DNA of 53,930 nt, the filler included, from Jimgerdemannia flammicorona (taxonomy: Eukaryota), in NCBI GenBank assembly GCA_003990765.1. It is 2 parts of 2 records of this genome, joined end to end, with 100 filler letters (N's around TTAATTAATTAA, not from the genome) between each part and the next. Parts side by side here need not be neighbours in the genome. Positions count along the whole stretch, not along the records: positions 1 to 26,916 come from RBNJ01000678.1; 1 more part is not named here. One strand, 5' to 3'. Below the pieces are notes generated by a model. It ran no database searches. It was not told where the DNA came from and saw only the letters and a program-made list of their open reading frames with translations. Within the stretch, counting starts at the first letter, position 1; each line of letters opens with the position of its first letter. This document shows, piece by piece, positions 1 to 48,086 of the stretch. Both the position numbers and the translations under genes were made by a program.

Positions 1-40
1 CCCCCCCCCCATGCTATCATTATTAACATACAACTCCAAG

Positions 41-4867: not shown

Positions 4868-5316
4868 CTCCAAATCAGCTCCAGGGGATGGCGGCGACAG
4901 CTTCGTTGAGAAGCGATGAGGCGACACCGAAATCCGCGAGGTCGTGCGCGCGTTCCAGCACCATCTCCATGAGCTTCTGGAGTAGGAGAAAGTTTGCTGC
5001 CCGGTATATTCCTGCCGCGATGGAAATGTTGGCAGTGTTGTCGATGGCTCGGTAGGACGATGTTGAGCACCGGGAGGTGATGTCGTTGAAGACGGCGATG
5101 AGAGGAACCCTCTCGCATATTTCCGTACAATGTCGCTTTGAAGACCGGACTTCATTTAAGAAATCACATGTAATGAAGTCTGTGGGAAGTGTATAAAAAC
5201 GACAGACACAAGTGAGCTTGCAAAACTAAACTCGGGTAATCCTTGAAGCCGGTACTGCACGGCATGCGCCTAGCTCGATCCCATCAATCGTCCCTGAGAT
5301 TGCATTGCTCGACCAT
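4868..5316 (-). pseudogene. Truncated, frameshifted BTB-domain paralogue
   Basis: Aligns with the 5' parts of the genes at 6113-7622 and 16554-21084 (ATG at 5316, ELGACRAV, YGNMREG, LERAHDL, ASSLLNEAVAAIPWS in shifting frames). Has deletions and stops abruptly at ~4868. Confidence 0.85.
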
Positions 5317-6112
5317 TTTTATAAAAGTCAGAGAATAAAAAAATTTGGTTGGGATGTGTCTGGTTTGACTGCAGAAAGAGTAATCTACATGACACATGTA
5401 CTTAATTATTGAAACCAGTACGTATGTGAAAATGTCGAGATTCCTACATCGTCGCTCCGGCACATGAAATGGAGAGCATTACGGAGTGCTTAATTCAACT
5501 CAAAGCATCGTATCGTAATTCAACACCTCGGCCATAAGCACGTACATATATCATTTGCATGGATAGTTCAAATGTATGATTAAAAATATATACATTTCGT
5601 TTGATTCTTTACATCAGTCATGTACATGAATTTTTTTTTATTGTTTCATTTAGCAAAATTGATCTCTAGCGCAATGAACGAAACCAAAGATGTGTAAGGA
5701 ACATCGAAAGAAAATACTTATGTGCTGAAATTTAAGCCGAAGTCCCAGAGATCCAAACCATCAATTCAACCTCTAAAACAGGTCATTAGTGATGCTCATT
5801 TAGGTGGGCATTAGGCCCTGTATTCGGTGTTTAGTTTTTACTGTGTGGAATATACGATGAATTTTGATGTCCTGGATGCCGAATCGAATGTCTAAAGCTC
5901 AAATACAGACTTTTATACAAAATCATAAAGCAGAAAAATTCATTACTGATATTAAATCACCGCAGCCCTACTAAATATATATATATATATATAATATGAC
6001 AGATATGAATAATTATAGCTACAGTGTATATATCTCTGAAAATGTTTAGATGATTCAAAATAGGCTTTGATACAGAAAAATGGCAGTGTTCATATTGCTA
6101 AGCTAAGAGAAT

Positions 6113-7622
6113 TCAGCCTCGGTGATCTTTGATCCGGTACTTGCATCCTTCAGATAAGGACACTGCAGGGTATACCTTGTTGGAGAGATTGCTAAAGGCT
6201 ATCCCGTAATTGATTCCATTGATCGAAATAGCAAAGGTGTGGTCATTTGGGTTTAAATGCAAGGTAATGACATCACCATTTTCAATATGTTTGCCATAAT
6301 TATAATTTAGCCCACTTGCTAGACCAAACGTAAATTTGGTGTTGCCGACAGAAAGGAAACCCCACGAATATATCTGGGATGTCATGTGCGTATCAAAATA
6401 TGTGAATTCTTCGCCAACGAACCCAATAATACAGACACCAGTGTTGTTATATGATCCAATAGATTCGACGACAATGTCCCATTCGCATAGGCCGTTGTGA
6501 GCCTTCGTCCCGGGGACGGAAAGCCGTGCTGTCTGTGAAGAACCCCTCAATGGAAGCTCTACAACCATGCCATCTTCGGAAACGACCAATTGAGAACCGA
6601 TTTTCGATCTATCCCACTGGAGATTGCCACTATGATGTGCCTTTCCACGACTTGCAGACGGATGACCTATAGGGCATATGGTGTTCTTACAGGCGTGATA
6701 GCAAAATGCCATGTAGTGTGGAGAAGTCTCCGCAAACGTGTCAACTGCCTCCGTGAGGGTCTTGAGTCGATGCGGGCAAACGAGCGTGAGGTCAAAATGA
6801 CTCATCATTTGAAGCAGCAAGGCGCGCGATGCACCGTTTCCTAGCCGGACCGTGCCATGGCACCCCTCGGCCATATCATTGATGTCATGCAGAACAGCAT
6901 GGCGTTCCGAAGCTGACGGCCCGTTATCGTTGCGGCCCCAGACCCAGTCGACGATGCACAGCAATAGGTCATGCTCAGGCGTGGAAAGGGTGGCTACCTC
7001 GGTGAGGAGTAACTCGAGGGCCTCTTTGGAGAGGCCAGTCAGCTCGCCGATGGCGAGCTTGTGGGCACGGAAGGGGTTGAGAAGCACGTCGTAGAGATCC
7101 TTGTTGGCCTCGCTCCACGGTATGTCGGCGACGGCTTCGTTGAGAAGCGAGGAGGCGACACCAAAATCAGCGAGGTCGTGCGCGCGTTCCAGCACCATCT
7201 TCTTGAGCTTTGGGAGGAGGAGAAAGCTTGCCGCGCGGTATATTCCTACCGCGGTGGAAATATTTACAGTATTGTCGATTGTTTCGGTGTGAATGAACCC
7301 GAGGACAATGTTGAGCACCGTGGAGGTGATGTCGTTGAGGACGAACCGATATGAAAAACCCTCTCGATTGTTTCCGTACAGCATCGCCTTGAAGACCGGA
7401 CATCTTTTAAGTGACCGCATGAAATTAGGTGGAAAGTGCATAAATAATGACGGACGCAATTAAAATCAAAAATCGGACAAACCTTGAGGCCAGTACAGCA
7501 CGGCATGCACCTAGCTCGACACCGTCAGCGCAGACAATGGCCACATCGTGGTAAGTTGAGTCTTTCCAGATGGAGGCAATATCGTCCTTGAGACTAAAAC
7601 CGCTGTCGGATTGCTCCCCCAT
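6113..7622 (-). CDS. BTB/POZ + helical (BACK-like) + C-terminal SPRY/B30.2 protein, ~476 aa. Exons 7622-7483 and 7403-6113
   Basis: BTB signature YHDVAIVCADGVELGACRAVLASR|CPVFKAMLYG spans a GT-AG intron. The C-terminus has a SPRY pattern (CEWDIVVE, IIGFV, YGKHIENGDVITLHLN, FAISINGINYGIAF, VYPAVSL). Spliced length 1431 nt is in frame. Confidence 0.85.
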
Positions 7623-8027
7623 GTTTGCAAAAGCGAGAGAAATAAAGGGGTCTGTTTGAGATGGTTTATTTTTATATCTAAATCGTGGCGCAGCATTGTC
7701 AAATGAGTCCCCCGAATCTCAGAATTTGACATGCATATGATACAAGTCGTGCAGAAGCTTTACTATATGGTGACCTTGCCCCCGAACCGCCCACAATCCC
7801 TCTGTGATGAACACATCCGCCATTTTATACTGGCCGAAATATAATATTGGCGTTATATTTCCTTCTGCTATATAATTATATTAATTATATTTCAGCTCCC
7901 ATGATGAAGCTCCAAAGGAATGCAATGTACCGAATTTGCGTGATGCTATTTTAATCTTTGCTCTCACGACACTTGGCAGAAATCTGGATATTTATGTTGG
8001 TTGATGTCTGTAAAAAAGATTCAGACT

Positions 8028-8051
8028 GCAAAATTCAATACAAGAGCAATC
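8028..8051. promoter_or_regulatory. 24-bp upstream block identical between the two intact BTB paralogues
   Basis: GCAAAATTCAATACAAGAGCAATC occurs at 8028-8051 and 21276-21299. TAAATCGTGGCGCAGC also occurs at ~7679-7694 and ~21146-21161. A regulatory role is inferred only. Confidence 0.4.
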
Positions 8052-8559
8052 CGCGGAAGCCTCATCGAGTAAACTTTGAACACCAGTTCTGCATTCCCTT
8101 CCTGAAGGCCTGGTAGGCAATTCTCACGACCACTGATAGCCTGATGGCGCTCACCCGAATATTGGTATTGTTGTAATCAAAAATATTATTGTCGCGGTGT
8201 TCCAGAAATCATCCAAGAGGAGAAAGGAGACCCTATTGGATAACAGAAAATAGATTTATTGAGAGGATAATTCTCCTCAGCCAAGAATGCTACGGGCAAA
8301 AGGAACTAACTCCAACCTGCTGTCGCGCATTGACCACAAGTCGGGCTCCAATACCATAATGGAGTCACATACACCTTCTCGGAATTTTCTCGTCAGTATT
8401 GATACAATAAATTGACAATACTTATTTTAAACATAGTAAGTAATAAAATAACCAGAAGCAAATATCGAAATTATGCAGAGTATTTCTATTTGGTCCTTTT
8501 CTGGTGAATTGCCACAAGAATGTGGTTTACATTAATGTTTCAAAATTCTAAATGCAAGA

Positions 8560-9236
8560 TTATATATCTAAGGAGTATAATATATACAGATATATAATTT
8601 TAGATGAACAATTAAATATCTAAATGATATCTTTGATATAACCAAATAAATTATATTTATATATAAATATTTAAAAAAATACAATTTGAAACTCTGAGAA
8701 TAACTGATATATAATTTTTGATAGATATTTAAAAATATTTGAGAATACTAATAAAATATTTTAGATTATTGCTCAGAACTATATAATTATTTAACAGTAA
8801 GATACTTATATATAACAGTAGGATAAATTATATTAAAATATATCTCTAGACTAATTTATATTATAAAGTTAGACTTTTTAAATTTTAAGTTACTATGTAA
8901 TTTTATATTTAGCCATTATAACAATTGATCTCTATCTGAATTTTCTCATAAAAGATCTTTAAACTTAATTATTTAAGCTAAAGTACCTTTTGTAATTGTA
9001 TGAAAATAGCTACTTATATATAGCTTAACTTATATAAGTATACTCTAAGGTATCTATAAGATTAGATATTCAAATTGATCAAAAGTTATATATGAAATGA
9101 GATATATATAAGATAAAATATTTGAAAGAGATGAAATATTTAACTATAGACTAAGTAAAATGAGTTTGACTAATATAGAAGTCTGCACTTTTATTATTTA
9201 TATAAAGTAAAGAGATCAATTATTATTATTATATAT
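8560..9236. mobile_element. Extremely AT-rich, unclassifiable TE relic
   Basis: Abrupt switch to CpG-free, TpA-rich sequence with no ORFs, contiguous with recognisable TE relics. Confidence 0.45.
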
Positions 9237-9985
9237 TGTAATATATTAGCTCAATAGAGATAAATTATAAGATTGGAGCTACTATTTAGATTAACTTAAG
9301 CTCTCAGTTACTTTGTTAAAAGTAATAAAATAATCAATAGTTTCTGGTATAAGTTCAGATAGTATATATACATATAATATAGACAATTTTAGTAGTTTTT
9401 CTATTTAGATAGAATTGGTAGACTTCTCAAATAATACAGAATTGTTACTAAATGTGGTTTCTATATAATATAATAAAATTCTCATATTCTTCAAAATTAG
9501 TAGATTTTTTAAATAATAAAGATAATAGTAATTCTCAAATAGTAACTAAGTTCTTTACTTAAACTTTAGTAGATAATTCAGATTTTATCTGGTAAGTAGA
9601 TCAAGAATAGTAGAGTTTTTAAATTTAGACTTTATCTGATAAGTAGACTAAATAACTATAATAGACTTTTTAAATTTGCAGGCTTCTTTTATTAAAGTTA
9701 TATTAATTGACTACTTTATTTGTATAAATAAGTTTACTATAAAGATATATCTGATTAACTAACTTTGGCAAAAGATAGTAGTAGACTTCTCAAAAGGTAA
9801 TATTCTCAAATTCAGACTTAATCTAATAAGTATACAAAATTGAATCTTCTCTTCTTTATATCAAAAAGTTAATTAAAGTAAAAAAGGAAGCTCTTTGCTT
9901 TTATTTAACTTTTCAGACTGAGGTTTATTTACTCTTATCACTGGGGTATTTTATATAGTTATAGTTACTAACTAGTTACTATATA
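9237..9985. mobile_element. Heavily eroded copy of the LTR-like terminal region at 22383-23290, left part (split by the younger Gypsy)
   Basis: 9237-9330 aligns with 22383-22476. 9898-9985 aligns with ~23067-23146 (ACTTTTCAGACTGAGGTTTAT...CTGGGGTATTTTATATAGTT). Confidence 0.75.
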
Positions 9986-10389
9986 TGTAACAGTTCTAGT
10001 TTCTAAATGAGGAAGTGACTAGTTCTGGTGGTTCTAAGTAGCTCAAAGAGATACTTAAAGATTCAAGTATTCTTGAAGGATTTCTGGGAGAAAATATTCT
10101 GAGACTTTATTCATAAGAATAAAGGGAATATTTATATAAGATTTGAGAGAAGGATCCAGAAGGATCCAAGAAATCAAAGAAAAATTCCAAGAGGAAAGTT
10201 CTTGGCAAAGATGATAAATGATGACAAATTAAGTTCTACAAGTTTTCAAGACATTCAGTGACTAGCTAAATAAGTACCAGAGAATGCTTGGTACCAAGAA
10301 AGAATTTCTAAGCATTCAGAAAGTATTGGAAGGTTGTAGAATATTGAAGAAAGACAAAGAAAAGAAATAAACTATACTAAAATTTTACA
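9986..10389 (-). repeat. 3' LTR of Gypsy element
   Basis: Direct repeat of 15605-16008. Adjacent polypurine tract on the minus strand (plus-strand TTCCTCCTCCTT at ~10391-10402). Confidence 0.95.
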
Positions 10390-10749: not shown

Positions 10750-13700
10750 TCTTGAGATTGGTGGCAGGTTCCCAGGTGGTATCATATTCAGGGTAACCCA
10801 TCCACTTGACTAGGTATTCTGTGCGATAGTACTGGACTCATTTGTCTAAGATTTTCTTGACTTCATACTTGATGTGGTCTTTAACTATCACTGGTGCTGA
10901 TGGTGTCAGAATTTGGCCAAGGTAAGGAGGTGACTGATAACAGGCCTTGAGTTGTGACATATGGAATACTAGGTATATATATATGGTTGTTGGCAGATTG
11001 AGGCAGTAAGACCAGGTGGAGACTTGCTCAGTGATTTCAAAGGGTCCAAGGTACTTAGGCTGGAATTTGGCTGACTAGTGGTTGACTTGAGATTGAGCCT
11101 TGATATTGTTGGCTTTGAGTAGAACCATATCACCAATGTTGTATATAACATCTTGCCACTTCTTATCTGCATACTTAGCTTGATATTGCTGAGCCTTTTG
11201 TAGGTTCATAGTGGTAATCTTGAGAAGGAAATCCATTTTGTTGATAAGATTTTGAGCTGTGGGGACTTGTGTGTGACTGGATTGCTAGAATGAGACTAGG
11301 TTTGCAGGAGTCTCAGGGTTTTGATCATGAAGTAGCTGAAATGGGGAAAGGTCAGTTGATAATTAGGTGGCATTATTGTAGGTGAACTTGGTATAGGTCA
11401 GATAGTGGTCTCAATCATCTTACTCATAAGACACATAGTTTCTGAGTATTTGTTCAAGTGTTCTGTTTATTTGCTCAGTCTGTCCATCAGTTTGAGGATG
11501 GAAGGCAGTAGATATAGCAATTTGGGTTCCAAGGGTCTTGAAGAGTACTTACCAGAAGTGACTTGTGAACTTGGGGTCATGGTCGCTGATAATTACTTAG
11601 AGAAGTCCATAATGGCAGAAGACAGTCTTGAAGAAGATTCTTGCAATTTCTGAGGCAGTGGCATTGGTTGTGGTTGGCTCGGCGATTGTAATCTTAGTGA
11701 GATGGTCCACAAATACAACAATAGCATCATAGCCTATTTTGGTTCATGGGAGTTATACAATGAAGTCCATTGTGACCTGTTTGAACTTCTTGGTTGGAAT
11801 TGGCAGAGGTTGCAGAAGACCAGTGAGTGCTTAGTTACTTGACTTGTTTCTTTGGCAAAGATTGCAGCTTTGGACATACTCCTTGATTTCCTTGAGCATA
11901 CTTGGTCAGTAGTAATCTCATTGGATATTCTTAATGATCTTCTCAGTTCTAAGGTGACCAGCTAGTGGAGAGTCATGGTGTTCATGAAGAATCTTATACC
12001 ATAGTTCAGAGTTGGCAGGAATATATACTTTGTCTTAATAGTACATGAGGTTGTTCTTGATGGTGTACTTTTCCTTGAATTCCTTGGTGTTCCTTTGTAG
12101 AACCAGAGAGTCTTGTTCATATGCCTTCTCGATCTGATTGAGGAATTCAGGTGCCATGGTGACTTGTAAAATTGTGGCAAGGTCAGGTCTTCTTGAAAGT
12201 GTATCTGGTACAACTAGAGTTTTGCCAGGCTTGTAGATGATGTTTGGAGTAAAGGTCTGAAGTAGTTGACTCCACTTGGCTTGTTGGTGAGAAAGGGTTG
12301 GTTGAGTGTTGATGTACTGAAGGGATCTGTGATTGGTGATCATGTCAAACTCAACTCCTTCTAGATAGTATCACCAGGTCTTGAGGGCATGCATGATCAC
12401 CAGGAGTTCCTTTTCATGAGTAGCCAGCTTTTGTTTGGCTGGGGACAATTTTCTTGACTCAAAGGCAATAGGTCAGTATCCTTGATCATCATCTTGAGAA
12501 ATGACTACACTAATAGCAAAGTTAGATACATCTATAGTAACTGTGAACTTTAAGTTTGGGTCCATGTTTCTAAGGACAGGTGCATGGGTCAGGCAGTTCT
12601 TGAGTTCTTGAAAAGCTTGTTGACAGAAAGCATCCCAGATGTAGGGGACATAGAGGTCAGAGTTGGGTTCCTTTCACAGGAGATTTGTCAAAGATTCTGT
12701 GATATCAGAGAAGTTCTTGACAAATAAATAGTAGTATCCAGCCAGACCAAGGAAGGACCTGAGTTCAGTGAGGTTTGCTGGTACAGGCCACTATTCAATG
12801 GCTTGCATTTTCCTTGGGTCTACTTGAATTCTTTTGGCTGATACAATGTGTCTAAGGTATTCAACTTGATCCTTGAAAAATTCACATTTCTTGAGCTTTG
12901 CATAGAGCTTGTTCTTGTGAAGGATCTTGAGGACTTGTTCAATATGCTTGAGGTGTTCTTCTTCAGTGCTACTGAAGATCAGAATGTCATCAATGTATAC
13001 AAGTACAAAGATATAGAGCTGATCCTTGAAGACAGTTTATATGAGATCTTAAAAGGTTGCTGGCATATTGGTGAGACCAAAGGCCATGACTAGAAATTCA
13101 TAGAGTCTGAAGGGTATCATGAAGACAGTCTTGGGTATGTCTTCTGGCTTGATTCGAATTTAGTGATACCCAGAGGTGAGATCAATCTTGGTGAAGTACT
13201 TTGTATTTTTGAGAGCATTAAAGATTTGATCTATGAGTAGTAGTGGATAATGGTTCTTGACTGTGATCTTGTTGAGTGCTTGGTAGTCTATACACATTTG
13301 CAGAGTATCATTCTTTTTCTTGACAAATAGAACTGGGGAGCCAAAGGGTGACTTACTTGGCTGAATGGCTTCTTGCTCAATGAGTTCATTGAGTTCCTTC
13401 TTGACTGCATCAATTTCAAGTAGAGACATACAGTACATTTTCTTCTTAGATATAGCTACATCAGGTACCAACTTGATTTCATGGTCATGGTCTCTTGAAG
13501 GTGGTAGACCAGGTAGTTTGTCTGGAAAGACATCTTTATACTTATTCAGTAGTAACTTGACACTTTCACTAATTGATAGCTTCTTATCTTCTTTCTTTAA
13601 TCAGATCAGTACCACAAAGGCACAGGTAGCTTTCTTGAGGGCCTTCTTGAACTGAATTGCCAAAAGGGTAGCAATTGGGGTTTTTGTCTGAGTCTTGTCT

Positions 13701-15536
13701 GGCTTGATGGTGATGTTGGTTCCATTCTGAATCAAGGTGACTTCATTCTTGGTCCAATCAATCTGAGGGTTATGTCATGTAAGCCAGGGTTTGCCTAGGA
13801 TCAGATCATGGTCTCCTAGTGGTGCTACCTCGAAATCTAAACATTCCCAGTACTTCTGGATCTTGAGAGGGAGTTTAGCAGCAATTGAGTCAATTGGTAA
13901 GGTAGTGCCATCTGTAGTGACAACTCTACCATTCTTGCTGGCTGGTTTGGAGAATCTTGAGCTTATTGATGAGGTTCTTGTTGATGAAGTTCTCAATAGC
14001 TCCACTGTCTATGAGAATATCTAGCTCTTGTCTCTTGACTAGGCCTTTGAAAATGAGCATTGAATTGACTTGGTTCTTGGCTATACTTGCAACTTTATCA
14101 GTGCTGCCAAAGTCTTTCTGATCTCGCTTGGTTGAAGACAGCTTGGTGACCTCTTTGATGACTGGTAGAGTGGCTTGCTCTAGAATGAGCTGTACAATTC
14201 TGTCACCTTCATTGATAGTATATGGTTAGTTCTTGTGGTTGACTAGCAGGACTTGCATTTCACCTCGGAAGTTAAGGTCAATGACTCCAGCACTAACATC
14301 CAATGAGTGCTTGAAACTGAGGCCAGATCTTGGTGCAATTCTTGCATAATGTTCCTTGGAAATTTCGACTGAAAGGTCAGTTGGAATGAGCCTTCTTTCA
14401 TGTGTAGGAATAGTAACTTGTTGTACTGCTTGAAGGTCCAAACCAATGACTCTTTCTGACTGTGCTTGAGGGATCTGGGTCTTGGGGTTGACTCGCATGA
14501 AATTGAGTACCACTTCTTGTTCAACTGGTTGACCTTGGGTGTCTTTGGACAGGACCAAAATTCTCTTTGGTTTGGCAGTTTTCTTGGGACATTTGGTTGC
14601 AATGTGACCAGGCTGATGGCAAAAGAAGCAGGCTTCAGCCTTCTTGAGACACTCCTTTTTCTTGGATGTAAGCTTGCCTTTTTTGCTCTTATTGATAGTG
14701 TCTAGGTCCATGGGGGCAGGTCCAATAGTTCTGACTTTGGGTTCCTCCCTTTTGTGGTTGTTGTTGAAAGGTGGTCTCTTCTGTTCAAAGCAGTGACCAT
14801 AGGTGATGATATTAAATCTATCAGCAATCTTCATTGCTGTATCTAGGTCCTTGGGTTCTTCTAGTTCAACATGAACTTGGGTTTGACCTTTTAGGCCTCA
14901 GATATACTTGTTGACCTTCTTGTCTTCAGTGACATGTGGTAATTCAAGCAGAATTGACAGGAATTATGCATTGTATGCTTACACAGACTTGAGTTGTTTG
15001 ACATTTGCCAGACAGTCTCGCGCAGTCTTAGTGTTATTGACTGGTTTGAATTGGTCTTGAACAGTATCAGAGAATTCATTCCAGGTTCTGATCCAGCCAG
15101 CAAATCTGATATTCTGGATATGGTTTCACTACTAGATTGCAGCATTTCCTTGGAGGAGTGTGGCAGTGAATTGGACTAGTGTTGCTTCTTTCAAATTGGT
15201 CAGTTCTCTATATTGCTCCAATTGAAAAAGCCAGGCATTGGTAGACAGTCCTCCTCTTTGACCATCAAAAGTGTCAGGCTTCTGAGGCTTGATAGTAACT
15301 ACTGTCAGATATATTGATATTGGTAGAGGTGTGGAGGTATGAGCAGGGGCCTTGCTTTCCTTTCTTTCTATGCATTCTTGAAGTTGGGCAATCTGAGCTA
15401 ATGCAGTCTGCAAAAGACTCTTGATGGCCCCATTTGACTGAGTAGAGTTTTGCTGTTCCTCTTCTTCTTGCTGATTGTATGAGGTATTGCCTGGACCATA
15501 GGTACTGTATGAAGGATTCCACCCATTGTCCTCCAT
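10750..15536 (-). pseudogene. gag-dUTPase-pol polyprotein with many stops and frameshifts
   Basis: Gag KPDTFDG...AWLFQLEQY; zinc knuckle CFFCHQPGHIATKC; dUTPase PRSG/GVID/FGST; protease LIDSGA (~14010); [28 protein letters not shown] (~12990); RNase H NHRSL/PDTLSR; integrase VTMDFIV, IVVFVDHL; chromodomain YLVKWMGYPEYDTTWEP (~10770-10820). Confidence 0.9.
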
Positions 15537-15593
15537 AGTGTTGTAACTGATATCTTGAGAGGTGTCTTGATAAGGCTAGGTGTAACTTAACTA

Positions 15594-15602
15594 CTGCTAC
15601 CA
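15594..15602 (-). promoter_or_regulatory. Primer-binding site TGGTAGCAG (complementary to the 3' end of initiator tRNA-Met)
   Basis: Lies 2 nt inside the 5' LTR boundary on the minus strand and matches the CUGCUACCA 3' end typical of eukaryotic tRNAiMet. Confidence 0.7.
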
Positions 15603-15604
15603 AG

Positions 15605-16008
15605 TGTAACAGTTCTAGTTTCTAAATGAGAAAGTGACTAGTTCTGGTAGTTCTAAGTAGCTCGAAGAGATACTTAAAGATTCAAGTGTTCTTGAAGGAT
15701 TTCTGGGAGAAAATATTCTGAGACTTTATTCATAAGAACAAAGGGGATATTTATACAAGATCTGAGAGAAGGATCTGGAAGAATCTAAGAAATCAAAGAA
15801 AAATGCCAAGAGGAAAGTTCTTGGCAAAGATGACAAATGATGACAAATAAAGTTCTACAAGTTTCCAGGACATTCAGTGACTAGCTAAATAAGTACTAGA
15901 GGATGCTCGGCACTAAGAAAGGATTTCTAAGCATTCGGAAAGTACTGGAAGGTCATAGAATATTGAAGAAAGACAAAGAAAAGAAATAAACTATGCTAAA
16001 ATGTTACA
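15605..16008 (-). repeat. 5' LTR of Gypsy element
   Basis: TGTAAC...GTTACA, 404 bp, direct repeat of 9986-10389. Confidence 0.95.
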
Positions 16009-16135
16009 ATATAGCTAATTATAAATATACAATAAGACTAATTTAGAAAAATATTCTTTTAGGAGACAGATATTCTTTCTAAATATAAGTATATCTTAGA
16101 TCTATGATATATATATCTTAGATCTATGAAATTTG
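16009..16135. mobile_element. Right part of the older eroded element split by the Gypsy insertion
   Basis: ATATAGCTAATTATAAATATACAATAAGACTAATTTAG continues the alignment with ~23141-23180 (TATATAGCTAACTATAGAATGCATAGTAATACTATTTAAG). Confidence 0.65.
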
Positions 16136-16553
16136 TCCTAATTTGGGATGACGTGCTATATGATGAGAGCTCCTTTCACGAGCTGTCGAGCCCAAGATTT
16201 TCCTATTTGCGTTGTGTCGGCTCGGGTTTTGGGTGAACAGGTGAACAGAACATCCGTGACCACCGATGTCATATTCTTATATATTAATACAGTTCGAAAG
16301 CGCTGATTATATTTTGGAAAATGTGGTTACATTTACGTCGGATACTATGCATTCCAACATGATAGTAAATCGACTGGAATGGGCCGAAATTACATGTCAC
16401 CATTATTTAAAGCAAATGCATTATTCACTACTAATTGACATCTGCTAAACTGGTGCCCCTCTCACTGTATAATAAAGAAAATTGTGGCGCTTCTCTAAAT
16501 TATATTTGCAAAGTTGGCCTATCACTACATCCGCCCTGCCTTAATTTCCATCC

Positions 16554-19500
16554 TCACTTTTTGACGAGCTGCCCAAAGAATTCGATTATGGTGGCTGCAT
16601 AACCTTGCAACTTGTATTCGGCAGCCCTGATATGATTTTAACGGACAATTACATTAAGCAAAACGGAAAACTGAATTTAATAGGATTTTATGTTACTTAC
16701 TCTCTATCAGAAATCTCTTTCTGGAAGCAAATGATGTCTCCATCTTGAATTTCGGCCTGCTGAAACGTCGTTGGTGTCTTCATGGGGTCAATCATGCTAG
16801 GTTTGATTTCCTTTAACATTCAATATGTAAGATACAAAGCGCTAAGGCATCGCCCAACCATTCTACAGGCTCGTCTCACAAATCATTCAATAGCCTACCT
16901 CAAACAATTTTAGTGCAGTATTCAATGGGAATCCTTTCTTCATGTTTAAGATAGGGATGATATCGCGAACTTTCCCGTTCCGCTTCACATAGAGCTTGCC
17001 GCAACCCCTATTTACACACAATTCCAAGGCAACATCTGATTGAGGTCTTTGACACAACGAAAAAAAAGCAGCAACACACAACAGAAAAGCTCTACTAACT
17101 CGATTATCTGTGTTTTCGGATCAAAGTATTTGATAAAGATCATCAGAGATGGGTGGGCGAATACACCCTTTAAAGTCGAGAGTTTGTCACTAATGGGCAT
17201 GTAAGTCTCCTCGAGATAGAGTCGCAGGGTGCTCTGGTAGGCATCCATTCTGGTTTGGATGAATTCCATTGCTATAAGCAGCATTTTTTTTTTAAAAAAA
17301 AATACTATATTAGTACAGACACCTCAAGACACCTGAAACCAATGACCAACAACTTCTTTCATTTGGATGAAGCCCCAATAAATAAAGTGAAATAAAATAA
17401 ATATCCTAACACTTACATGAATTGGCTTCGGTCTCTGAGATCGGTTGGTCAGGCCTCACCGTCCGATTATATCGGTTGACAAGAATCCATAGCCTAAATC
17501 TGTTGACCGGGACCTGGAAATGGTCTGCGACTGATTGTTTGAATACTGAAAACCGCTCCTCCTTCTTTACGCGAAAAGATGGTATTTCTGACTGCATTGT
17601 CTTGTCATCGAAATTTGCCAGATCGAAACCTTGATGCACCTTGAATATGTCGTCTGTCACGACCTAGAGCAAATGATCGCACATGTAATAGGTATTGTAG
17701 CAGAGAAACCTTAAGATACACGACAACTGGTGAACGCAGCTCACCTTGGCAGTCAGATGCGTTTTGTTCTCCTCGTCAAGATGCATTTCTATAGTAAATA
17801 ATTCGGAACACGTAGTCCTTAAAAAAGTTCTGTAATGCGACACTTATGTGTTTTTCTGTATCATTGTTGCTTGATCACATCCTCCGAACAAACAAACGAA
17901 ATGAAAAGAATAAAAAAATAAATAAAAAAAGAAATAAGGAATAATAGGAAACAATACGCACCTATATGAGGTGGAATATCACCAGGTGATATCGGCGCGA
18001 GCATCTCATCGACATCAGACTCACGAATATACACAAGTGCGTATGCGCTCGTGAATCTTCTTTTTGCCGCCATTTGTGGTCGTCGGGCAACGAGTTGGTT
18101 GGCGTTGGGTGCCTCGCCCCCATAGTTATCCTCAAACACCTCAAGGTCCGTTACAGGCGTGACACGTTGACCTTCGTACTTGAACCACTTGTTGTCCTTT
18201 TTGGGCTTCAGAAAAGCAAAGTATTGACCACCGTCGAGATCACCACTATGCACTATGACGCTGAATATGAAAGAGTAACATATCATCAAAAGCATGTATA
18301 CAAACAGTATGCGGGGTGTTGTCATTGACTGTCAGGTTTCTGATTGAGCACTCTTACCCATGAAGGAGATATTTGTGTGGTCCGTTTCTGTCAGCGATCG
18401 GAGAAAGGAACTCCTCGAGGTCGATCTCAGGTGGAAATTCATGACGGCCATTAATCTAAGCACAATCGGCATGGTTAATTCTTTTCTGAATTCGAGATTA
18501 AGTGTCTATTTGCAGGGACAGCCATATCGTGGACCCACCTTGACCATAGTATCTTTTGAAATATCATATTCAAACCGCTTTAGTTGTACATATAGTACGG
18601 ACGGGAAGCTCTCGAAATAGACACCCCTCTTGACGTTTTGCAAACCGTGGTCCCCGATCTGTTGCTTTTCCACGAACTCAGCCACAAACTTCACGAAAGA
18701 TTCATAGAGGTTTTTGCACCCTTTCACGTCGAGTTGAATGTCTAATATATTGCGAAATCAAAAGAATCCAAGAATCAATGTCCACGTCGGTGATGCGACG
18801 ACAGTGCTTTCTCAGTTTACCATAATAATCCTCCACGCGCGAGAACTCATAATCGATGCTTATTCCCTTGACATAAGTCTTCATCTTGCCGATGAATAGT
18901 TTCTTCATGTCGCCATCGGCCGGTGTGTTCTAAAAATGGCAGAAGTCTCGTCACATAGACGTATTGTAGCATAGAATCTGATATTGACTTGCCCAACAAC
19001 GTAACATTTACTACACACCTTCATTTTGGACTCCAGGATTTCCTGTAAAATACGGTTAAACTCCAGAAATTCACGCTCCATGGATGTATCGAGAAAGTCC
19101 CACCCAAAACTCCTTGTCAACTCCGTTGTACCTAATCGTTAACCAAACAGCGAGTGGATTTAGAAACGTCCACTACATCTAAATGATATTAGCTGGCCTA
19201 TATAAGCTGTTCCAGCGCCCTTTCTTGGACTTGGCATCCTAGGGCCTACCTACCAACAGCTACTTCCGAGAACTGGAGATTATAAAACACGCGCTGTAGT
19301 GCCAAGGCAACGTTCTTGGTGGGTACGTCGGATTCCGTTGGGATCTTGTAGACAGCTCTACAAAAGAATTTTATCATATATAAACATTGCACGGCCGTGT
19401 TCAAGTAACTGGTCGTTCCCTGGTTTAAGAGGCCGACAAAACCGGTGACCTTTCTGGAGTCATAGCTAGTGGAAAATCGCAAACAATGAGCTTCATTTAC

Positions 19501-21084
19501 AATTGCAAGGAATGGATTCGCTACATTTTCCCACAACGCGCACTCACCTGACAAAGTTGTGCCACAGTACCCCAGTATGGTCTTTCAAGACACGCACGAA
19601 AGCAGAGATGACTGTCTGGTCATCGTCAATCAAGGGATATGAGCGCCCGTCATTTGGCTGAAACATCTTTTTGATATCACAGAATCGGGTGAAACCTAAG
19701 TTAGGCTTGTCAGCACAAAATCGATTGTGAGCGCTTCGATGCTTCAATTGGGTCGGATCGAACGGGTTAGATATCACCAACGCGAACTGAGCGCACGAAT
19801 GCTTTCCCTGCTCGGACGGCCCGGGGTCAACGAGTTGAAGATACATGGAGGTACTCTCTTTCTGGTTGTTACCAAGAGGGAAGAGCATAATTTTCCTACA
19901 TGTACAGGATAAAAGGTTGAAACCCCCGAAGAGAATGCAAAGTTTTGCCTAATAGTTCGAGTGGGAATACATAGAGAGGTAAAGCATGCTACCATTTCCA
20001 ACCGCCCGCCTCAAATTCCGGGCTGTACACCCTACCAGTCAGGGCACGCCAACTTTCGATTTTCCAGTGGAAGACTTGAAAATCCTCTACGTCGTGATCT
20101 AGGTCAGGCAGTATCTGTCGCGTAGGGCATAGGGTGTTCTTGCAGGCATGATGACAAAACGCCATGTAGTGCGGAGAAGTTTCCGCGAAGTTGTCAACTG
20201 TCTCCGTAAAGGTCTTGAGTCGATTTGGGCAAACAAGCGTGAGGTCGAAATGGCTCATCATTTTGAGCATCAAGGCGCGCGATGTGCCGTCTCCTAACCG
20301 GACCGTGCCAGCGCGTCCCGCAACCACATCGTTAATGTCATGCAGAATTGTACGGCGCTCCGAAGCCGACGTATTCTCGTTGCTTCGCCAGAACCAGTGA
20401 ACGACGCACAACAATAAGTCATGCTCGGGTGTGGAAAGAGTGGCTGACTCGGTGAGGAGCAGCTCGAGGGACTCTTCAGACAGGTCGGACAGCTCACCGA
20501 TGGCAAGTTTGTGAGTGCGAAAGGGGTTGAGGAGCACGTCGTAGAGGTCCTTGCTGGCTTCGCTCCAGGGGATGGCGGCGACAGCTTCGTTGAGAAGCGA
20601 TGAGGCGAAACCAGAATCAGCGAGGTCGTGCGCGCGTTCCAGCACCATCTCCATAAGCTTCTGGAGTAGGAGAAAGCTTGCTGCGTGGTATATTCCTACC
20701 GCGATGGAATTAGTGACAGTGATGTCGATGGCCTCGGTGTGAATGAAGCCGAGGACAATGTTGAGCACCGTGGAGGTGATGTCGTTGAGGGCGACGCGAT
20801 GAGAATAACCCTCTCGCATGTTTCCGTACAGCATCGCCTTGAAGACCGGGCATCTTTTAAGAGATTACATGATATTAAGTGTGTGTAAAATGTGTAGAAA
20901 ACGACGGACACAATTAAACTGTGCAAAATCGAAATCGGACAAACCTTGAAGCAAGTACTGCACGGCATGCGCCTAGCTCGACTCCGTCAGCGCAGACGAT
21001 GGTCACATCGTGGTAAGTTGGGTCTTTCCAGATGGAGGCGATATCGTCCCTGAGATTAAAACCGCTGCCGTATTGCTCGACCAT
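16554..21084 (-). CDS. BTB + helical + MATH + USP7/Ubp15-like (pseudo-)catalytic domain + UBL1-2 fusion, ~1045 aa. Exons 21084-20945, 20853-19993, 19895-19548, 19465-19254, 19131-19019, 18929-18821, 18741-18539, 18455-18358, 18260-17962, 17788-17745, 17663-17417, 17271-17100, 17007-16899, 16810-16701, 16626-16554
   Basis: All 14 introns are GT-AG with compatible phases, giving 3138 nt in frame to TGA. BTB motif as in the paralogue; MATH FHWKIESW...SPEFEAGGWKWKIMLFPLGN; USP7 hallmarks GVLWHNF, YDSRKVTGFVGLLNQG, ALALQRVFYNLQ, TTELTRSFGWD, QLKRFEYD, VHSGD, AYALVYIRE; UBL region HQGFDL, NRTVRP, FIKYFDP, FEEIKP, AEIQDGDIICFQK. Confidence 0.9.
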
Positions 21085-22382
21085 GTTTATAAAAGCGAGA
21101 GAAATAACGAGGTTTGGTTGGGCTTGACTGCGGCAAGAATTTCTTTAAATCGTGGCGCAGCGTAGAAAGCGGTCCTGACAGGAACCTGGGTTTTTTTTAG
21201 TTAATTGATGGAAAATAAATATTTGTCAAAATGATTCAGATTGCTAAGTAGCAACAATTGTCCAATCCTGGTGTGGCAAAATTCAATACAAGAGCAATCT
21301 GAAGGAATCCCTCTTCCGGAGAACTCTGTTAACAAACTCGTAAAAAAAATACTGCTTATGGCAGTATTTCAGTTGGCGTGTTACATCCGCGAGGTACTTA
21401 TGTATCGAACTCAGCTTCTCAGGTTTAGCATTCCCATAGTGAAAGGTTTTTTGAGTATTTGTTTAGGTTCATCAAAATAAATAATAAAATAAGAAAAAAA
21501 AAAAAAATTGATATCATGTTCTGGACGCACACCTTTGCAACCCAGGAATAATAATAACAATAATAATAAGTGCCGGTCCCAGGTGCAATACCAAAAAGGG
21601 GGATTTTTTTTCCGAGAGGAGAGGAATTCAAGGCCGCGCCTTAGTGAATATGGGACATCCGTAGTGGAATGGCTCGTTCCGCCGGCTCATGATCTAGGCG
21701 AGCGGAAACGGCACCATAATCCGATCTAATCTACAAGACGTTGCGCCAAATAATGCTATATTCGTTTTTATGTCCCTCATGGGCAATTGTTGTCATCAGC
21801 AGCGCGACCACGTGTCGACTTTCAATCCATTTTCTGGTGGTGATTCCATTGATTTTAGTCAAGAGACTATTGTTGGAAATCTACCCTCACATTTTAACGG
21901 ATCCAACAGAATATGTTCACGCGTTGCGGGGGTGTGACTCCTGGCAAAAAAATAATGTGGATTGGAAGGCCTCTTCTGCAGAGGAAAAGGAGGTTTATGT
22001 TTTGATTTGCATTATAATTTGTGGCTTCTGCTTATGTTCCACGTCGGCAATAACAACGTCATCAATTTCTCAATCGCAACGCGCAACATGTAATATCAAT
22101 AAAGATTGCCGCTCTTTAAGAAAACAAAATATTACAATAGTTCATCGGTCGGATACGATTGGTTTGCAAACCGATAGGGTACAGGTCCAAAGATCGCATG
22201 GGCCGTTAACTTTTTTTATTTTTTTTATATTTTTTATATATGGCTCAACCAATGGGTTTTATTATGCCCAGAAACTGAGAAAGGATCAGTTGAAAAAAAT
22301 CCAATATTCCTTGTAATCCTCTATTAAAATTACTATAGATAATAGACAAAGTATCAGATATTTTTATTTGTAATATATATAC

Positions 22383-26897: not shown

Positions 26898-29800
26898 TTT
26901 TTTTTTTTTTTTTTTTNNNNNNNNNNNNNNNNNNNNNNNNNNNNNNNNNNNNNNNNNNNNTTAATTAATTAANNNNNNNNNNNNNNNNNNNNNNNNNNNN
27001 NNNNNNNNNNNNNNNNCCCCCCCTACCCCTACCCAACAAAAGGCTACTTTGTCTAGCACTATTTCTACCCTTCCACCACTCTGTTTACAGATCCTTATCA
27101 CCAAACCACAATGCCACTCCCCCTGAGGACCCCACCTCACCCACCATCCAGTCAGCAGATCCCCCAACAACTCCTCCCATCATAATACCTTCTCCTGTAG
27201 CCCCACCTACTGCCTCTCCTCAAATACAAAAAGCCAATATCCAGCCAGTCCCACCTACACTGCTAACACCCACTAACTGAGATCTCAAGTCCTCCCTCAC
27301 CCACTGGCCTATGCTCCACACCCAGTCTATTCCCAATTTCTATCCAAAAGTTCCCCAAAACCTCACATTCTCCCAGCCAGTATTCCAGCATCTGCACAAG
27401 TCCCCCAGCTTGCCCTACATTGTAACACTCCTCACAATCTAATTGGCCACCATCCACCAGATGCCCAGTGTAGTAATTTAGCATGATATTCCTCTACAGT
27501 ATTCACCACCATACCATCCAGAACTTGGGAGGAAGCCATCTCTATACCTCAGCACTTCATGACCAGATACCTGCCCAGTCCCACTCCTTGCCAATCCCTG
27601 CTGCCTGCCAGCTACTTGGCCAAAGATCCTGGCCAAGACCCTGCTGATACTCCACTCTATCTCCAATATCAAACTCAGCAAGTAAAGCACCCCCCAGAAG
27701 TAGTCTATTCCATCGCTACATCTCAGGACCCCACATCACCTCCCCCTCATTGTCTCACTAGCACAGGCCAATTTGGTGTGCTCCATCTACCACCCCCCAC
27801 CAAAATTCTTTAAACTGCAGCCACTGATTTCCATTCAGCCTCACCAAAGAGAGCAGATCTTCTGAGGACCCTCAAGGGGAGGTTCTCATCTCCCACACCT
27901 TCTGCAGTAGTAGCACCCAACCCCCTCCCTGTAGTTCAGCAGCTCTCTTCAACCACCAGGCTCGCAAACAGTGCAACTTCTTAGGGAAATCCACAAGGCC
28001 AAGACCTCCCCTGACCACTGGTGTTGCCAGAGTATCCCAACTGATCTGGGACCTCCTCCCTGCCCAAATCCAATCTCTAGCCACCTTCGTCAGCCTCTTC
28101 ACCACCCAAGCTGGGAAGTCTAGGTGATAGGTCACATACTATAGCTTGGGGAACCAGTAGATATTCAGAATTGATACCTGCTCTGTCAGAGATATATGGC
28201 GGCCTCCCCAACCTCGAAGGGCCTCCCCCCAAATGGTCACCCTACTCTCCCACCACACCTGTGGTAAGACAGAACTATATACAGAAAGGAAGATGCCCAG
28301 ATACCACACTACCTTGCTAGTAGGGACAATTGTTCCAATGATGTCTCCCCCACTAGTCTATTCCCTAGCACCATTGTCTCACACTTATGCTAGTTGAGCT
28401 TTGCCCCAGAGTGAGCCTCATACCATTCCACTGTCCCCTTAAGTGCCTCGACATCTGCCACTGACCCAAGTCTAACCACCATGTCATCAGCAAAGGCCCC
28501 CACCTTCCACACTATACTATATATAGAGAGCCTTGCTATCTTCTGGCAAATTCTATCCATCAAAGGCTCTAATGAAAGGGTATAGAGAATAGGGGACAGA
28601 GGGTCCTCCTGAGGAACTCCTCTTCCCAAGGAAAATGCCAGACCTCAGTGACCATTATACATTAGTGCCTCCTGACTGCTCTCTAGTAGACTCAATATAG
28701 AAGCCCAAAATCTTAGGGAAACACCAAGTCGATCCAACACCTTGCCCAGCCAAACCCGCCATACATGGTCATAGGCCTTCTCCTGGTCCAAAAAGACCAA
28801 CCTTCCATCTAGTCCACAAGCCTGGGCCCCTTCAATGACACCATGCACCCATGCAGTCTCATCTCTTATAAGTCTGCCCCCAACAAAGCCCCACTGCTCC
28901 TCCCCCAGTACCTGTTGGGCAACTTTCTGCAGCCTTGTGACAATCATCTTAGTCACCATCTTCCTGTCCATATCCAGAAGTATGATTGGTCTCCAATTCT
29001 TCCAGTCTTCTCTCCTCCCCTTATCTTTGTACAATAAGGCCACCAGCCCAAGGTCCTGCTCTCCAACCCACTCACCACTCTGAAGAACATTGTCACAGAG
29101 AGCAGCCATCTCCCCCAAAACTCCAGGGACCTTTACCATCTTCTTTCAGAAGTCCCACAGTAACCCATCCTCCCCTGGCGCCATTCCTAGCTTAGTTGCT
29201 GCAAGGACACTCTGGATCTCCTCTTCTTGCACCAGTAAGATCAAGTCACCCAGTCCTGCTACTTGCAGCAGCTCCCACTCCTCTAGTGTATCTTCAATCA
29301 CCTCCTCATCAGCACCCCCTTCCCCCTCACTCCATAAACCCTGCCATCTCTTCTTCAAAACCCCTAAGATTTGTTGTATACTATGCACCATATCCCCCTC
29401 GGCATCTAAGACCCCATCCCACTGATGTCGTACCCTCCTAGCTTTGAGAAGTCTTGACAAGTATCTAGTAGGCCACTCACCCTCCTCAAGCCCCTGCCAC
29501 CATAGCCTGGCAGCCATTCCTTGCATATGAGTCTCCTCCTCCTCTCACAATACCTGTTGCAGTTCCACTATCTCCAATTTCGCCCACTTTAACCTCCAAT
29601 CCTCTACCCCATCAGAAGTAAGCAAATCTACCCAAATCATTTGCAGCTCTTCAGCCTGCTGGAAGCACACCTTGTACACTTCCTCCTCTGTCTCCCAGCT
29701 TCTCTACCAGCTCCTCCCCAATAAACCCTCACAGCCTCTTTCAATCTCATCCAACAGACACCCACAGACAAACCCTCATATCTCCAGGTAGACACCTTCA

Positions 29801-35700: not shown

Positions 35701-36484
35701 AGGAGATAGGAGAGTCACACCTATTGGGTGGGTGGTCTTGGAACTAGGATAGACTGAGTGCTGACCACTGACTATTGGGGCCTAGATATCTGGAAGTTCC
35801 TGGAGGTTGAGTGGTGTCTATAGTCAGACTACTGGAAATTGTTAGAGTGTGGTTAGTTTGGAGAAAGTGGGGATGAGCCTGGACATTAGTGTCTCAATTC
35901 CTCCTTATTAGCTGAGAAGGGGTTGTGGGATACTTGGGCTGAGAACATTGGGCAGAAAGTAGATAGTTGGGTTTGGAAGCACCTCTGTAGATATTTGGTA
36001 AGTGAGGTTAAAGGAGGAGGTCACTAGGATTTACTAGAGTGAAGCCAGTAAGATGGCTGGAAGACAGTAGTAGAGGAGGGTGGCCTGGGCATCTACTAGA
36101 TTAGTCTGGTTTCAGGAGAAGTGGGTGGATCTTTTGACCTTGGAGGGGATTGAGGATTGAAGGCTGCTGTAAGTAAGACTGAAGATTGCTGAGCTATAAC
36201 AGGTATTGAAGGAGGAGGAGGAGACCCATGTATGAGAAATAGCTACATAGCTGTGCTGGTAGAAACTGGAGAAGGGGAAGAGGCCCTCTAAGTACCTTTC
36301 AAAACTTCTGCAGATAAGAAAAGTGAGGCAGTGGTGGGAGGGGGTACTGGGCTCTAATGGGCTATTGGTATATAGCTTATAAAACATTTTGAGTTTACTG
36401 AAAAAGAGATAGAGTAGTTTATGGAGTAAGAAGGAGAGTGGAGCCAATTAGTACATCACAACCTGAGCCGACCTGTGTACATAT

Positions 36485-47800: not shown

Positions 47801-48086
47801 GATATGTTCCAATTTAGGAAGTTATTGGGATGCACCAGTAAGCCCAAGGTGGCAACACAAGGATCATGTGAGCTATACTGATGTATATGAATGCATATAC
47901 ATCATGATATCCAGTGAGCCATACATATATGACAAGGCTATGTAATGCCTGGACAGTAAGAAATGGGAACACACAATAGATGAGGAATATGATTTGCTCA
48001 TCGAAAATAATACCTGGGACTTAGTATCTCTTCCACAAAATCATTAAGCAATAGGATCCAAATGGGTGTATAGAATAAAGTGCAAT
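44806..48086 (+). mobile_element. Ty1/Copia LTR retrotransposon, 5' portion, interrupted at the start of RT by LINE copy 3
   Basis: Short LTR TGTTG...CAACA (44806-44957) and PBS. Gag FNGKDYAIWAF; protease WLMDSGATQYMT; WHKYLGH...CKDC; integrase SDNGQEY, PQKNSMAERFN; RT start ENNTWDLV...GSKWVYRIK. Confidence 0.9.
44960..44971 (+). promoter_or_regulatory. Copia PBS GGTTATGAGCCC (internal, half-molecule tRNAiMet type)
   Basis: Lies 2 nt after the LTR end and matches the GGTTATG(G/A)GCCC PBS known for Drosophila copia / yeast Ty5-type elements. Confidence 0.8.

Follow-up and report, generated by a model that had tools for sequence, protein, structure and literature searches.

In the canonical deubiquitinase USP7 (HAUSP; Ubp15 in fungi), a short N-terminus is followed by a MATH domain carrying the motif DWGF, a USP fold with the catalytic residues Cys, His, and Asp, and five ubiquitin-like (UBL) domains. 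According to passages of PMC10919355, the catalytic domain of USP7 requires UBL4-5 for full activity and the remaining UBLs mediate interactions; passages of the same source describe pseudo-deubiquitinases (pseudo-DUBs) as scaffolds or allosteric partners and regulators, and none of those named in these passages is derived from USP7 or fused to a BTB domain. The BTB-BACK adaptors of Cullin-3 (Cul3; e.g., KLHL11, KBTBD2, KLHL3, and vaccinia A55) join a BTB domain and a helical extension to a variable recognition module, and SPOP and the MATH-BTB proteins (BPM, BATH) combine MATH with BTB, in that order and with no other large domains. The gene described here lies on the minus strand at 21084-16554 of a stretch of 53,930 nucleotides (nt) from the fungus Jimgerdemannia flammicorona (GenBank assembly GCA_003990765.1), hereafter called the window, which consists of two parts joined by 100 filler letters, positions 1 to 26,916 being from RBNJ01000678.1. 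It has the MATH, USP, and UBL1-2 order of canonical USP7, to which residues 295-1045 of its product are homologous, but it begins with a head read as BTB-BACK rather than with a short N-terminus, has Ser, Gln, and Glu in place of Cys, His, and Asp, lacks UBL3-5, and reads NLGF for DWGF. As in the BTB-BACK adaptors, a BTB domain and a predicted helical extension precede another module, although the identity of the head to these proteins is only 13-17%, the Pfam family BACK gives no match, and the C-terminal module is not Kelch. Unlike SPOP and BPM, the protein has BTB first, and its MATH domain descends from USP7 and is accompanied by a USP fold and two UBLs. Like the pseudo-DUBs, it has a USP fold without catalytic residues, its inactivity being read from the sequence. 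BTB adaptors and pseudo-DUBs are each known, and no description was found of an adaptor with a whole dead USP7 body as its recognition module. The reading favored here, at roughly even probability, is that the gene is genuine, transcribed, and kept by selection in a fungus of Mucoromycota, with its nearest named relatives in Endogonales, and that its product would most likely be a lineage-specific Cul3 substrate receptor or scaffold built on a pseudo-deubiquitinase.

Gene structure and the fusion junction

The anatomy of the gene is directly supported by a spliced model with a coding sequence of 3138 nt (1045 residues), in which the frame is kept with no internal stops from a start ATG at 21084 to a stop TGA at 16556-16554 and all 14 introns (74-173 nt) have the form GT..AG; exon borders were placed by eye on the sequence and then verified by script. 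Pfam scans, run on stop-to-stop open reading frames (ORFs), recovered the domain order of BTB-BACK head, USP7-type MATH, USP fold, and UBL1-2: BTB (PF00651) matched exon 2 with 32.2 bits (E 1.3e-7) and exon 1 with 17.7 bits (under the cut-off of 20.5), MATH_2 matched exon 3 (32.6 bits), UCH matched exons 4, 7, and 9, and USP7_ICP0_bdg matched exons 11-14, reaching only position 150 of the 241 in its profile, with no match to USP7_C2 in the exon ORFs. A preliminary description of the locus had proposed a BTB-MATH-USP7 chimera at 16554..21084 with this order of domains and an end after UBL1-2; its coordinates coincide with the start and stop codons of the spliced model, and both the order and the early end are borne out by the Pfam matches and the model. 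The parts of the gene are as follows.

16554..21084, minus strand: whole coding gene, 15 exons, 14 introns, 1045 amino acids (aa)
Exons 1-5, minus strand (spliced model): 21084-20945, 20853-19993, 19895-19548, 19465-19254, 19131-19019
Exons 6-10, minus strand (spliced model): 18929-18821, 18741-18539, 18455-18358, 18260-17962, 17788-17745
Exons 11-15, minus strand (spliced model): 17663-17417, 17271-17100, 17007-16899, 16810-16701, 16626-16554
21085..21120, minus strand: 5' flank homologous to the BTB-SPRY paralog (the blastn match begins at 21120, paralog position 7658)
20124..21084, minus strand: head read as BTB-BACK, residues 1-290, with intron 1 (20944-20854); from Pfam, AlphaFold, VIA, and dN/dS
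20111..20123, minus strand: fusion junction in exon 2 (..CP-TRQI-LPD..); from two homology ends and bridging contigs
19550..20111, minus strand: USP7-type MATH, divided by intron 2 (19992-19896); from MATH_2 and tblastn to P0002
17962..19465, minus strand: USP (peptidase C19) fold, exons 4-9, without the catalytic triad; from UCH, phmmer, and an aligned panel
16557..17788, minus strand: linker exon 10 and UBL1-UBL2 (exons 11-15), with an early end; from Pfam and tblastn
16301..16556, minus strand: stop codon (16556-16554), followed by 250 nt or more of 3' untranslated region (UTR); from zero-mismatch contigs through the TGA

The junction had been placed at about 20120, in frame and inside one exon, and it is found at 20123-20111 in exon 2, where the DNA encodes the peptide quoted at that time (...KNTLCPTRQILPDLDHDVEDFQVFHW...). 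Direct support for the origin of the two halves comes from tblastn searches with P0001 (a Logan-derived BTB protein used as the query for the head) and P0002 (the USP7 of Cylindrobasidium torrendii), whose two matches adjoin at this point: similarity of the head to BTB family proteins extends as far as ..FCHHACKNT.C, the USP7 homology starts at LPDLDHDVEDFQVF (20111), and the only residues between the two homology ends are TRQI (291-294). When the 5' part was compared with the rest of the window by blastn, 21120-20123 aligned with 7658-6670 (83.6% over 1001 nt), and the nucleotide homology to this paralog stops at 20123, i.e., exactly at the junction. The USP7 part keeps its introns, in line with the DNA-level rearrangement that had been proposed as the source of the fusion. 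The paralog is an intact BTB-BACK-SPRY gene 13 kb from the chimera, whose single intron sits at the position of the chimera's intron 1, and a further copy of the head is degenerate.

6113..7622, minus strand: intact BTB-BACK-SPRY gene, 476 aa, exons 7622-7483 and 7403-6113
4878..5353, minus strand: degenerate third BTB-head copy, 83% identical to the chimera at the nt level and interrupted by an in-frame stop (tblastn alignment)

The homology of the head begins 36 nt upstream of the ATG, and the chimera therefore took the 5' end of a BTB gene; the 5' UTR and the proximal promoter came along with the head. In relatives, the same head is followed by SPRY (P0001, P0038, and the gene in the window) or by a protein kinase (P0040, J. 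flammicorona RUP46980.1); it is a reusable N-terminal module and derives from a BTB-SPRY gene family. The fusion arose from a local gene of the BTB-BACK-SPRY family, whose 5' end (the promoter-proximal flank, exon 1 with the following intron, and the greater part of exon 2) became attached in frame to a duplicated USP7 gene, immediately before its MATH domain, and the USP7 part turned non-catalytic after the fusion or had been so before it.

Loss of catalytic residues

The USP7-derived part of the protein (residues 295-1045) is homologous throughout to fungal USP7, with 768 columns aligned to the C. torrendii protein at 51.6% identity. For the exons containing the Cys box and the His box, the best PDB match is human USP7, and a PDB sequence search with the MATH exon gave no match at E <= 0.001. 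The loss of the catalytic residues is directly visible in phmmer alignments to human USP7 chains, in which the position of the catalytic Cys (human C223) is occupied by Ser469 (codon 19410-19408), that of the His (human H464) by Gln707 (codon 18226-18224), and that of the Asp (human D481) by Glu724 (codon 18175-18173); the Cys, His, Asp, and MATH motif DWGF are kept in 12 of the 12 canonical fungal USP7s of the aligned panel. Because Cys, His, and Asp have been replaced by Ser, Gln, and Glu, the USP7 part, on this evidence, cannot be a working deubiquitinase, and it is predicted to be enzymatically dead, a point absent from the preliminary description. UBL3-5, including the activating module UBL4-5, are also lost, as indicated by the Pfam matches, by tblastn (no part of the window matches P0002 beyond about residue 800), and by the presence of the stop codon in contigs. 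With both the triad and UBL3-5 lost, the product is predicted to be a pseudo-deubiquitinase borne by a BTB-BACK head. In the alignment with the panel, the window gene keeps the acidic motif of UBL2, EIQDGD.

Expression and splicing

Three sequencing runs, X1, X2, and the soil metagenome X3, were matched on 16000-21600 at 90% likeness. We infer that X1 and X2 are transcript assemblies from contigs that skip introns exactly: introns 1, 3, 4, 5, 6, 7, 8, 10, 11, and 14 (10 of the 14) are skipped at the modelled sites, an agreement that allows the stated cut offsets and one or two differing letters, and for intron 9 there is a joint of matching length (173), shifted by one base. X3 contigs contain intron sequence (18177-18327). 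Splicing is directly supported by zero-mismatch contigs that join 18826-18929 to 19019-19128 (exons 5 and 6) and 16386-16625 to 16700-16809 (exons 14 and 15; X2 record 8), and another zero-mismatch contig (X1 record 1, 16301-16625) passes unspliced through the stop codon. The junction is crossed without mismatch by X1 record 6 (20045-20221) and X3 record 17 (20083-20233), with at least 38 letters on each side. The preliminary description had looked to RNA across 20853-19548 for the connection between BTB and MATH; the junction half of this connection is in place, but the joint of exons 2 and 3 is missing, as introns 2, 12, and 13 have no joint among the 15 of 25 joints listed. With the exception of the step from exon 2 to exon 3, we infer from these contigs that the gene is expressed and that its splicing follows the model. 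Other contigs, forming a second class, match the gene at about 90% identity (e.g., exon 9, with 29 differences over 298 nt) and stem from one or more expressed paralogs. Two X2 contigs follow the head to 20121 and then run into unrelated letters; these are transcripts of other BTB family members, diverging exactly at the junction. One X2 contig ends near 21098 in adapter-like letters.

Selection and maintenance

A comparison of the head with the paralog in the window over 290 codons (method of Nei and Gojobori, NG86) gave a dN of 0.095, a dS of 0.44, and an omega (dN/dS) of 0.22. Tajima relative-rate counts were near equal (14 versus 14 with three outgroups, 16 versus 11 with two), and therefore there is no acceleration in the chimera's head. 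Direct support for maintenance of the ORF comes from simulated random mutation of the 1045-codon coding sequence, in which the frame remained open in 13 of 2000 cases at 5% divergence per site and in 0 of 2000 at 10%. The frame and the head are under constraint. Of the read differences, 40 of the 163 from the approximately 90% identical expressed paralog correspond to 37 codons (18 synonymous and 19 non-synonymous), and within the USP7-derived part these are 15 synonymous and 15 non-synonymous, which suggests an omega of around 0.3 from a partial sample of possibly mixed paralogs. Neutral dN/dS had been named in the preliminary description as an outcome that would count against the proposed chimera; the head is not neutral, and for the USP7 exons the read differences give the rough figure just stated.

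Related proteins and phylogeny

The search for relatives combined one full HMMER search with three word-based ones. Among named proteins, the nearest come from J. flammicorona, namely P0013 (RUP50644.1), P0003, P0004, and P0012; the Jimgerdemannia proteins have 60-86% protein identity to the window gene and are therefore diverged copies or orthologs, not the same gene. The occurrence of the same fusion in another genome is directly supported by P0013, a protein of 382 aa that begins in the tail of the head and has an identical junction (..CPTRQILPD.DHDVEDFQ..), with 86% identity over query residues 182-291 and 75% over the MATH exon; in an all-against-all search of 149 representatives, it is the one protein with this junction. 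P0013, P0003, and P0004 share with the window gene the junction, the truncated C-terminus, or the dead Cys box: P0013 has Asp in the Cys box, P0004 has Ser as in the window gene, and the end of P0003 (..EFFEQLVKQ) falls at the end point of the window gene (..EFFGQLVKK), with blastp reaching the last residue of both. They differ from the window gene in that P0013 keeps DWGF and P0003 keeps the His and the Asp. The protein is represented in public sets only as unnamed fragments.

A BTB head also precedes a USP7-type MATH in another lineage of Mucoromycota, in the Gigaspora rosea proteins RIB14835.1 (BTB-BACK-MATH) and RIB11625.1 (BTB-MATH-USP7_ICP0_bdg), but these proteins have another BTB-BACK head and a junction farther upstream, and they lack the USP fold. 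A USP7-like protein of 1015 aa from the same species (RIB08235.1) is also dead (Gly and Tyr). MATH-UBL proteins without a USP fold were found in Gigaspora margarita and in two NCBI fungal records (P0116 and P0180), P0116 being inside Agaricales in a quick tree, and dead USP7 paralogs were found in Galerina and Mycena as well. The USP7 paralogs that lack catalytic residues (in Gigaspora rosea, G. margarita, Galerina marginata, and Mycena alexandri) or the whole USP fold (the MATH-UBL proteins), a group comprising P0186, P0132, P0101, P0151, P0116, P0180, P0156, and P0011, are spread over several lineages of fungi, and those of Agaricales nest in Agaricales in the same tree. This quick maximum-likelihood tree, in which many rows are fragments, the root is at the midpoint, P0012 is left out, and the heads of 4 rows were trimmed before alignment, groups the window gene with Jimgerdemannia (Shimodaira-Hasegawa-like approximate likelihood ratio test, SH-aLRT, 100%) and then with Gigaspora (95), outside the basidiomycetes. 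On this tree the USP7 part appears native to Mucoromycota. The BTB-MATH proteins of Gigaspora group with other Gigaspora USP7-like proteins and not with the window gene, and the data suggest that these BTB fusions may be a separate event. Horizontal transfer of the USP7 part from Basidiomycota was considered, as the first named hits were basidiomycetes, and was rejected because the tree places the gene outside the basidiomycete clade.

A search for long proteins with the head gave 2 matches, neither of them a full BTB-MATH-USP protein, BTB was among the precomputed Pfam domains of 0 of 25 USP7-type hits, and a scan of JGI metagenomes yielded 4 loci, none of them chimeric. One metagenome contig (L002, 7223 nt) carries a USP7-like gene with several in-frame stops (tblastn) and a changed Cys box; it probably represents a pseudogene, or else an intron-rich paralog from another fungus that aligned poorly. 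The architecture had initially been thought to be without a described counterpart, and the literature search agrees to the extent that no paper was found on a BTB-USP7 fusion or on dead fungal USP7 paralogs, but the junction in RUP50644.1 and the BTB-MATH fusions of Gigaspora indicate that it is not unique.

Possible functions of the fused protein

If the protein is a Cul3 receptor, the head would dimerize and bind Cul3 in the manner of KLHL/KBTBD/SPOP-type adaptors, and the body of MATH, dead USP fold, and UBL1-2 would be a recognition module for binders of USP7-like surfaces. Alternatively, the dead USP fold, which could still be able to hold ubiquitin, may serve to bind ubiquitin itself or proteins that carry it; in either case the bound proteins would be ubiquitinated instead of deubiquitinated. 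The head is read as BTB-BACK from the Pfam BTB match and from structural comparison. An AlphaFold model of the exon-2 ORF, made with 20 relatives (predicted local distance difference test score, pLDDT, 78.8; predicted template modelling score, pTM, 0.74), is helical to about residue 245 of this ORF and disordered across the junction. VIA-align of the model ranked the BTB-BACK part of KLHL11 in complex with Cul3 first (Z 11.7, root-mean-square deviation 4.3, 206 aligned), followed by KBTBD2-Cul3 (Z 10.4) and SPOP BTB chains (Z about 7), with the caution that helical models with Z values under about 13 may simply share a common arrangement. The triplet M59-R60-E61 (M59 codon 20819-20817) follows ..KAMLYGN.., is also present in the family consensus, and stands at what we take to be the place expected for the Cul3-contacting phi-x-E motif of BTB adaptors, a placement made without residue-level structural alignment. 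Taken with the joining of the head to other modules, the predicted BTB-BACK fold and the matches to KLHL11 and KBTBD2 are compatible with the Cul3 adaptor proposed in the preliminary description. A search of Protein Atlas returned only BTB-BACK(-MATH) clusters of animals and plants (scores 0.88-0.91), which are leads only.

Several observations weigh against a maintained Cul3 receptor, beginning with the caution attached to the Z values above. The head model represents a single-exon ORF and is without the protein's first 47 residues (part of the BTB domain), Foldseek found no PDB match to it at E <= 0.001 (best 7e-3; the top rows, though above this threshold, are BTB-BACK adaptors), and the exon-ORF scan gave no match to Pfam BACK. 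The motif DWGF, part of the peptide-binding groove of human USP7, reads NLGF in the window gene (N399-L400, codons 19702-19697), and therefore the case for delivery of ordinary USP7 clients through the MATH groove is weaker. At columns invariant in canonical USP7, substitutions separating the window gene from three Jimgerdemannia fragments are no scarcer than elsewhere (odds ratios of 1.2, p 0.51; 1.0, p 1.0; and 1.7, p 0.03). The window gene keeps 170 of the 223 canonical-invariant residues (27/34 in MATH, 100/138 in USP, and 34/38 in UBL), with 38 of 138 altered in the USP fold. Because the invariant columns are not spared and so many of these residues have changed, the old constraints are largely relaxed in the USP fold, a loss that is as expected for a pseudoenzyme. 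The Jimgerdemannia relatives are fragmentary gene models, none of which includes the BTB domain itself, and the chimera is set among retroelements. Finally, the splicing joint of intron 2, which leads from the junction exon to the rest of MATH, is among those absent from the 15 of 25 joints listed, and retention of this intron would bring in a TAG immediately (19991-19989) and leave a BTB-BACK stub.

The protein might instead act independently of Cul3, as a scaffold or a dominant-negative decoy whose head only oligomerizes and whose body sequesters USP7 partners, ubiquitin, or foreign USP7-targeting proteins. Not every BTB protein binds Cul3, and the lack of a Pfam BACK match and the retention of EIQDGD in UBL2 fit such a role, as do the dead or UCH-less USP7 paralogs without BTB in Gigaspora and Agaricales, from which the body alone appears useful. 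The pseudo-DUBs described as scaffolds and allosteric regulators in passages of PMC10919355 are a further parallel. A decoy is nevertheless considered unlikely, since the structures that match the head best are those of BTB-BACK adaptors in complex with Cul3, M-R-E stands at the presumed phi-x-E position, and the modules that follow the head are interchangeable, as they are in families of adaptors. That the protein is an active deubiquitinase tethered to a BTB domain is very hard to credit: the USP fold is recognizable, and passages of PMC10919355 mention enzymes first labeled as pseudo-DUBs that were later reported to be active, but Ser, Gln, and Glu occupy the positions of Cys223, His464, and Asp481, and the UBL4-5 activating module is absent.

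The loss of the triad, DWGF, and UBL3-5, the relaxed substitutions relative to canonical USP7, the flanking retroelements, the decayed head copy at 5353-4878, and the fact that the relatives in J. flammicorona are only fragmentary models could also point to a young, transcribed, and functionless chimera, produced by duplication and shuffling in a repeat-rich region and now decaying. Such decay is improbable, however, given that the frame of 1045 codons is open and the splice sites of all 14 introns are intact, that the same junction occurs in a copy 14-25% diverged at the protein level, and that the simulated frames stay open in 0.65% of cases at 5% neutral divergence and in no case at 10%. 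In addition, the head has an omega of 0.22 and a rate equal to that of the intact paralog, the read differences in the USP7 part are half synonymous, and the truncated C-terminus is conserved to its last residues in P0003. The region is rich in repeats and BTB paralogs, in which an assembly might join two genes by error, but an artifact of this kind has a negligible probability: zero-mismatch contigs of X1 and of the soil run X3 bridge the junction (with the caveat that the bridging run may share material with the assembly), and the same junction is present in RUP50644.1, a protein of a separately deposited genome.

Should the product indeed be a receptor that binds Cul3, a deubiquitinase would have been made part of a ligase, a clean natural reversal of sign in ubiquitin signaling. 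The dead or USP-less USP7 paralogs of Gigaspora, Jimgerdemannia, and Agaricales, together with what are apparently two separate BTB fusions, suggest reuse of the MATH and UBL surfaces as a scaffold, and this wider pattern of reuse of the USP7 body may be a more useful lead than the single gene. A more speculative and quite doubtful extension is that USP7-derived non-catalytic bodies form an undescribed class of fungal recognition modules, recruited onto BTB heads more than once (in Endogonales and, separately, in Gigaspora); as a Cul3 receptor, the protein would then use its dead deubiquitinase to read ubiquitin or the ubiquitinated clients of USP7 and to extend or rewrite their marks, or it would be an integrated decoy for USP7-targeting molecules in mycorrhizal Mucoromycota, whose BTB families are expanding fast. 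The gene also provides a concrete, expressed example for the poorly understood BTB expansions of mycorrhizal early-diverging fungi; BTB/POZ genes are listed among the high-copy expanded families of Rhizophagus irregularis in passages of PMC8647823.

Genomic context

The remains of a retroelement lie just downstream of the chimera.

12038..15621, minus strand: long terminal repeat (LTR)-type retroelement remains, with a gag-like ORF, dUTPase (E 5e-20), reverse transcriptase (RT), and RNase H

The interval 8001-10000, between the BTB-SPRY gene and this retroelement, is very AT-rich (GC 0.25). Elsewhere in the window, copia-type LTR pieces occur on the plus strand at 45428-47942 (Retrotran_gag_2, Pol_BBD, and SH3_retrovirus), and three RT-bearing repeat copies, 70-77% similar, are found at 28600-32300, 33500-36000, and 48500-52100. 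The first of these copies is inverted relative to the other two, and all have an extreme GC skew that depends on orientation (-0.4 to -0.5 or +0.45 to +0.5).

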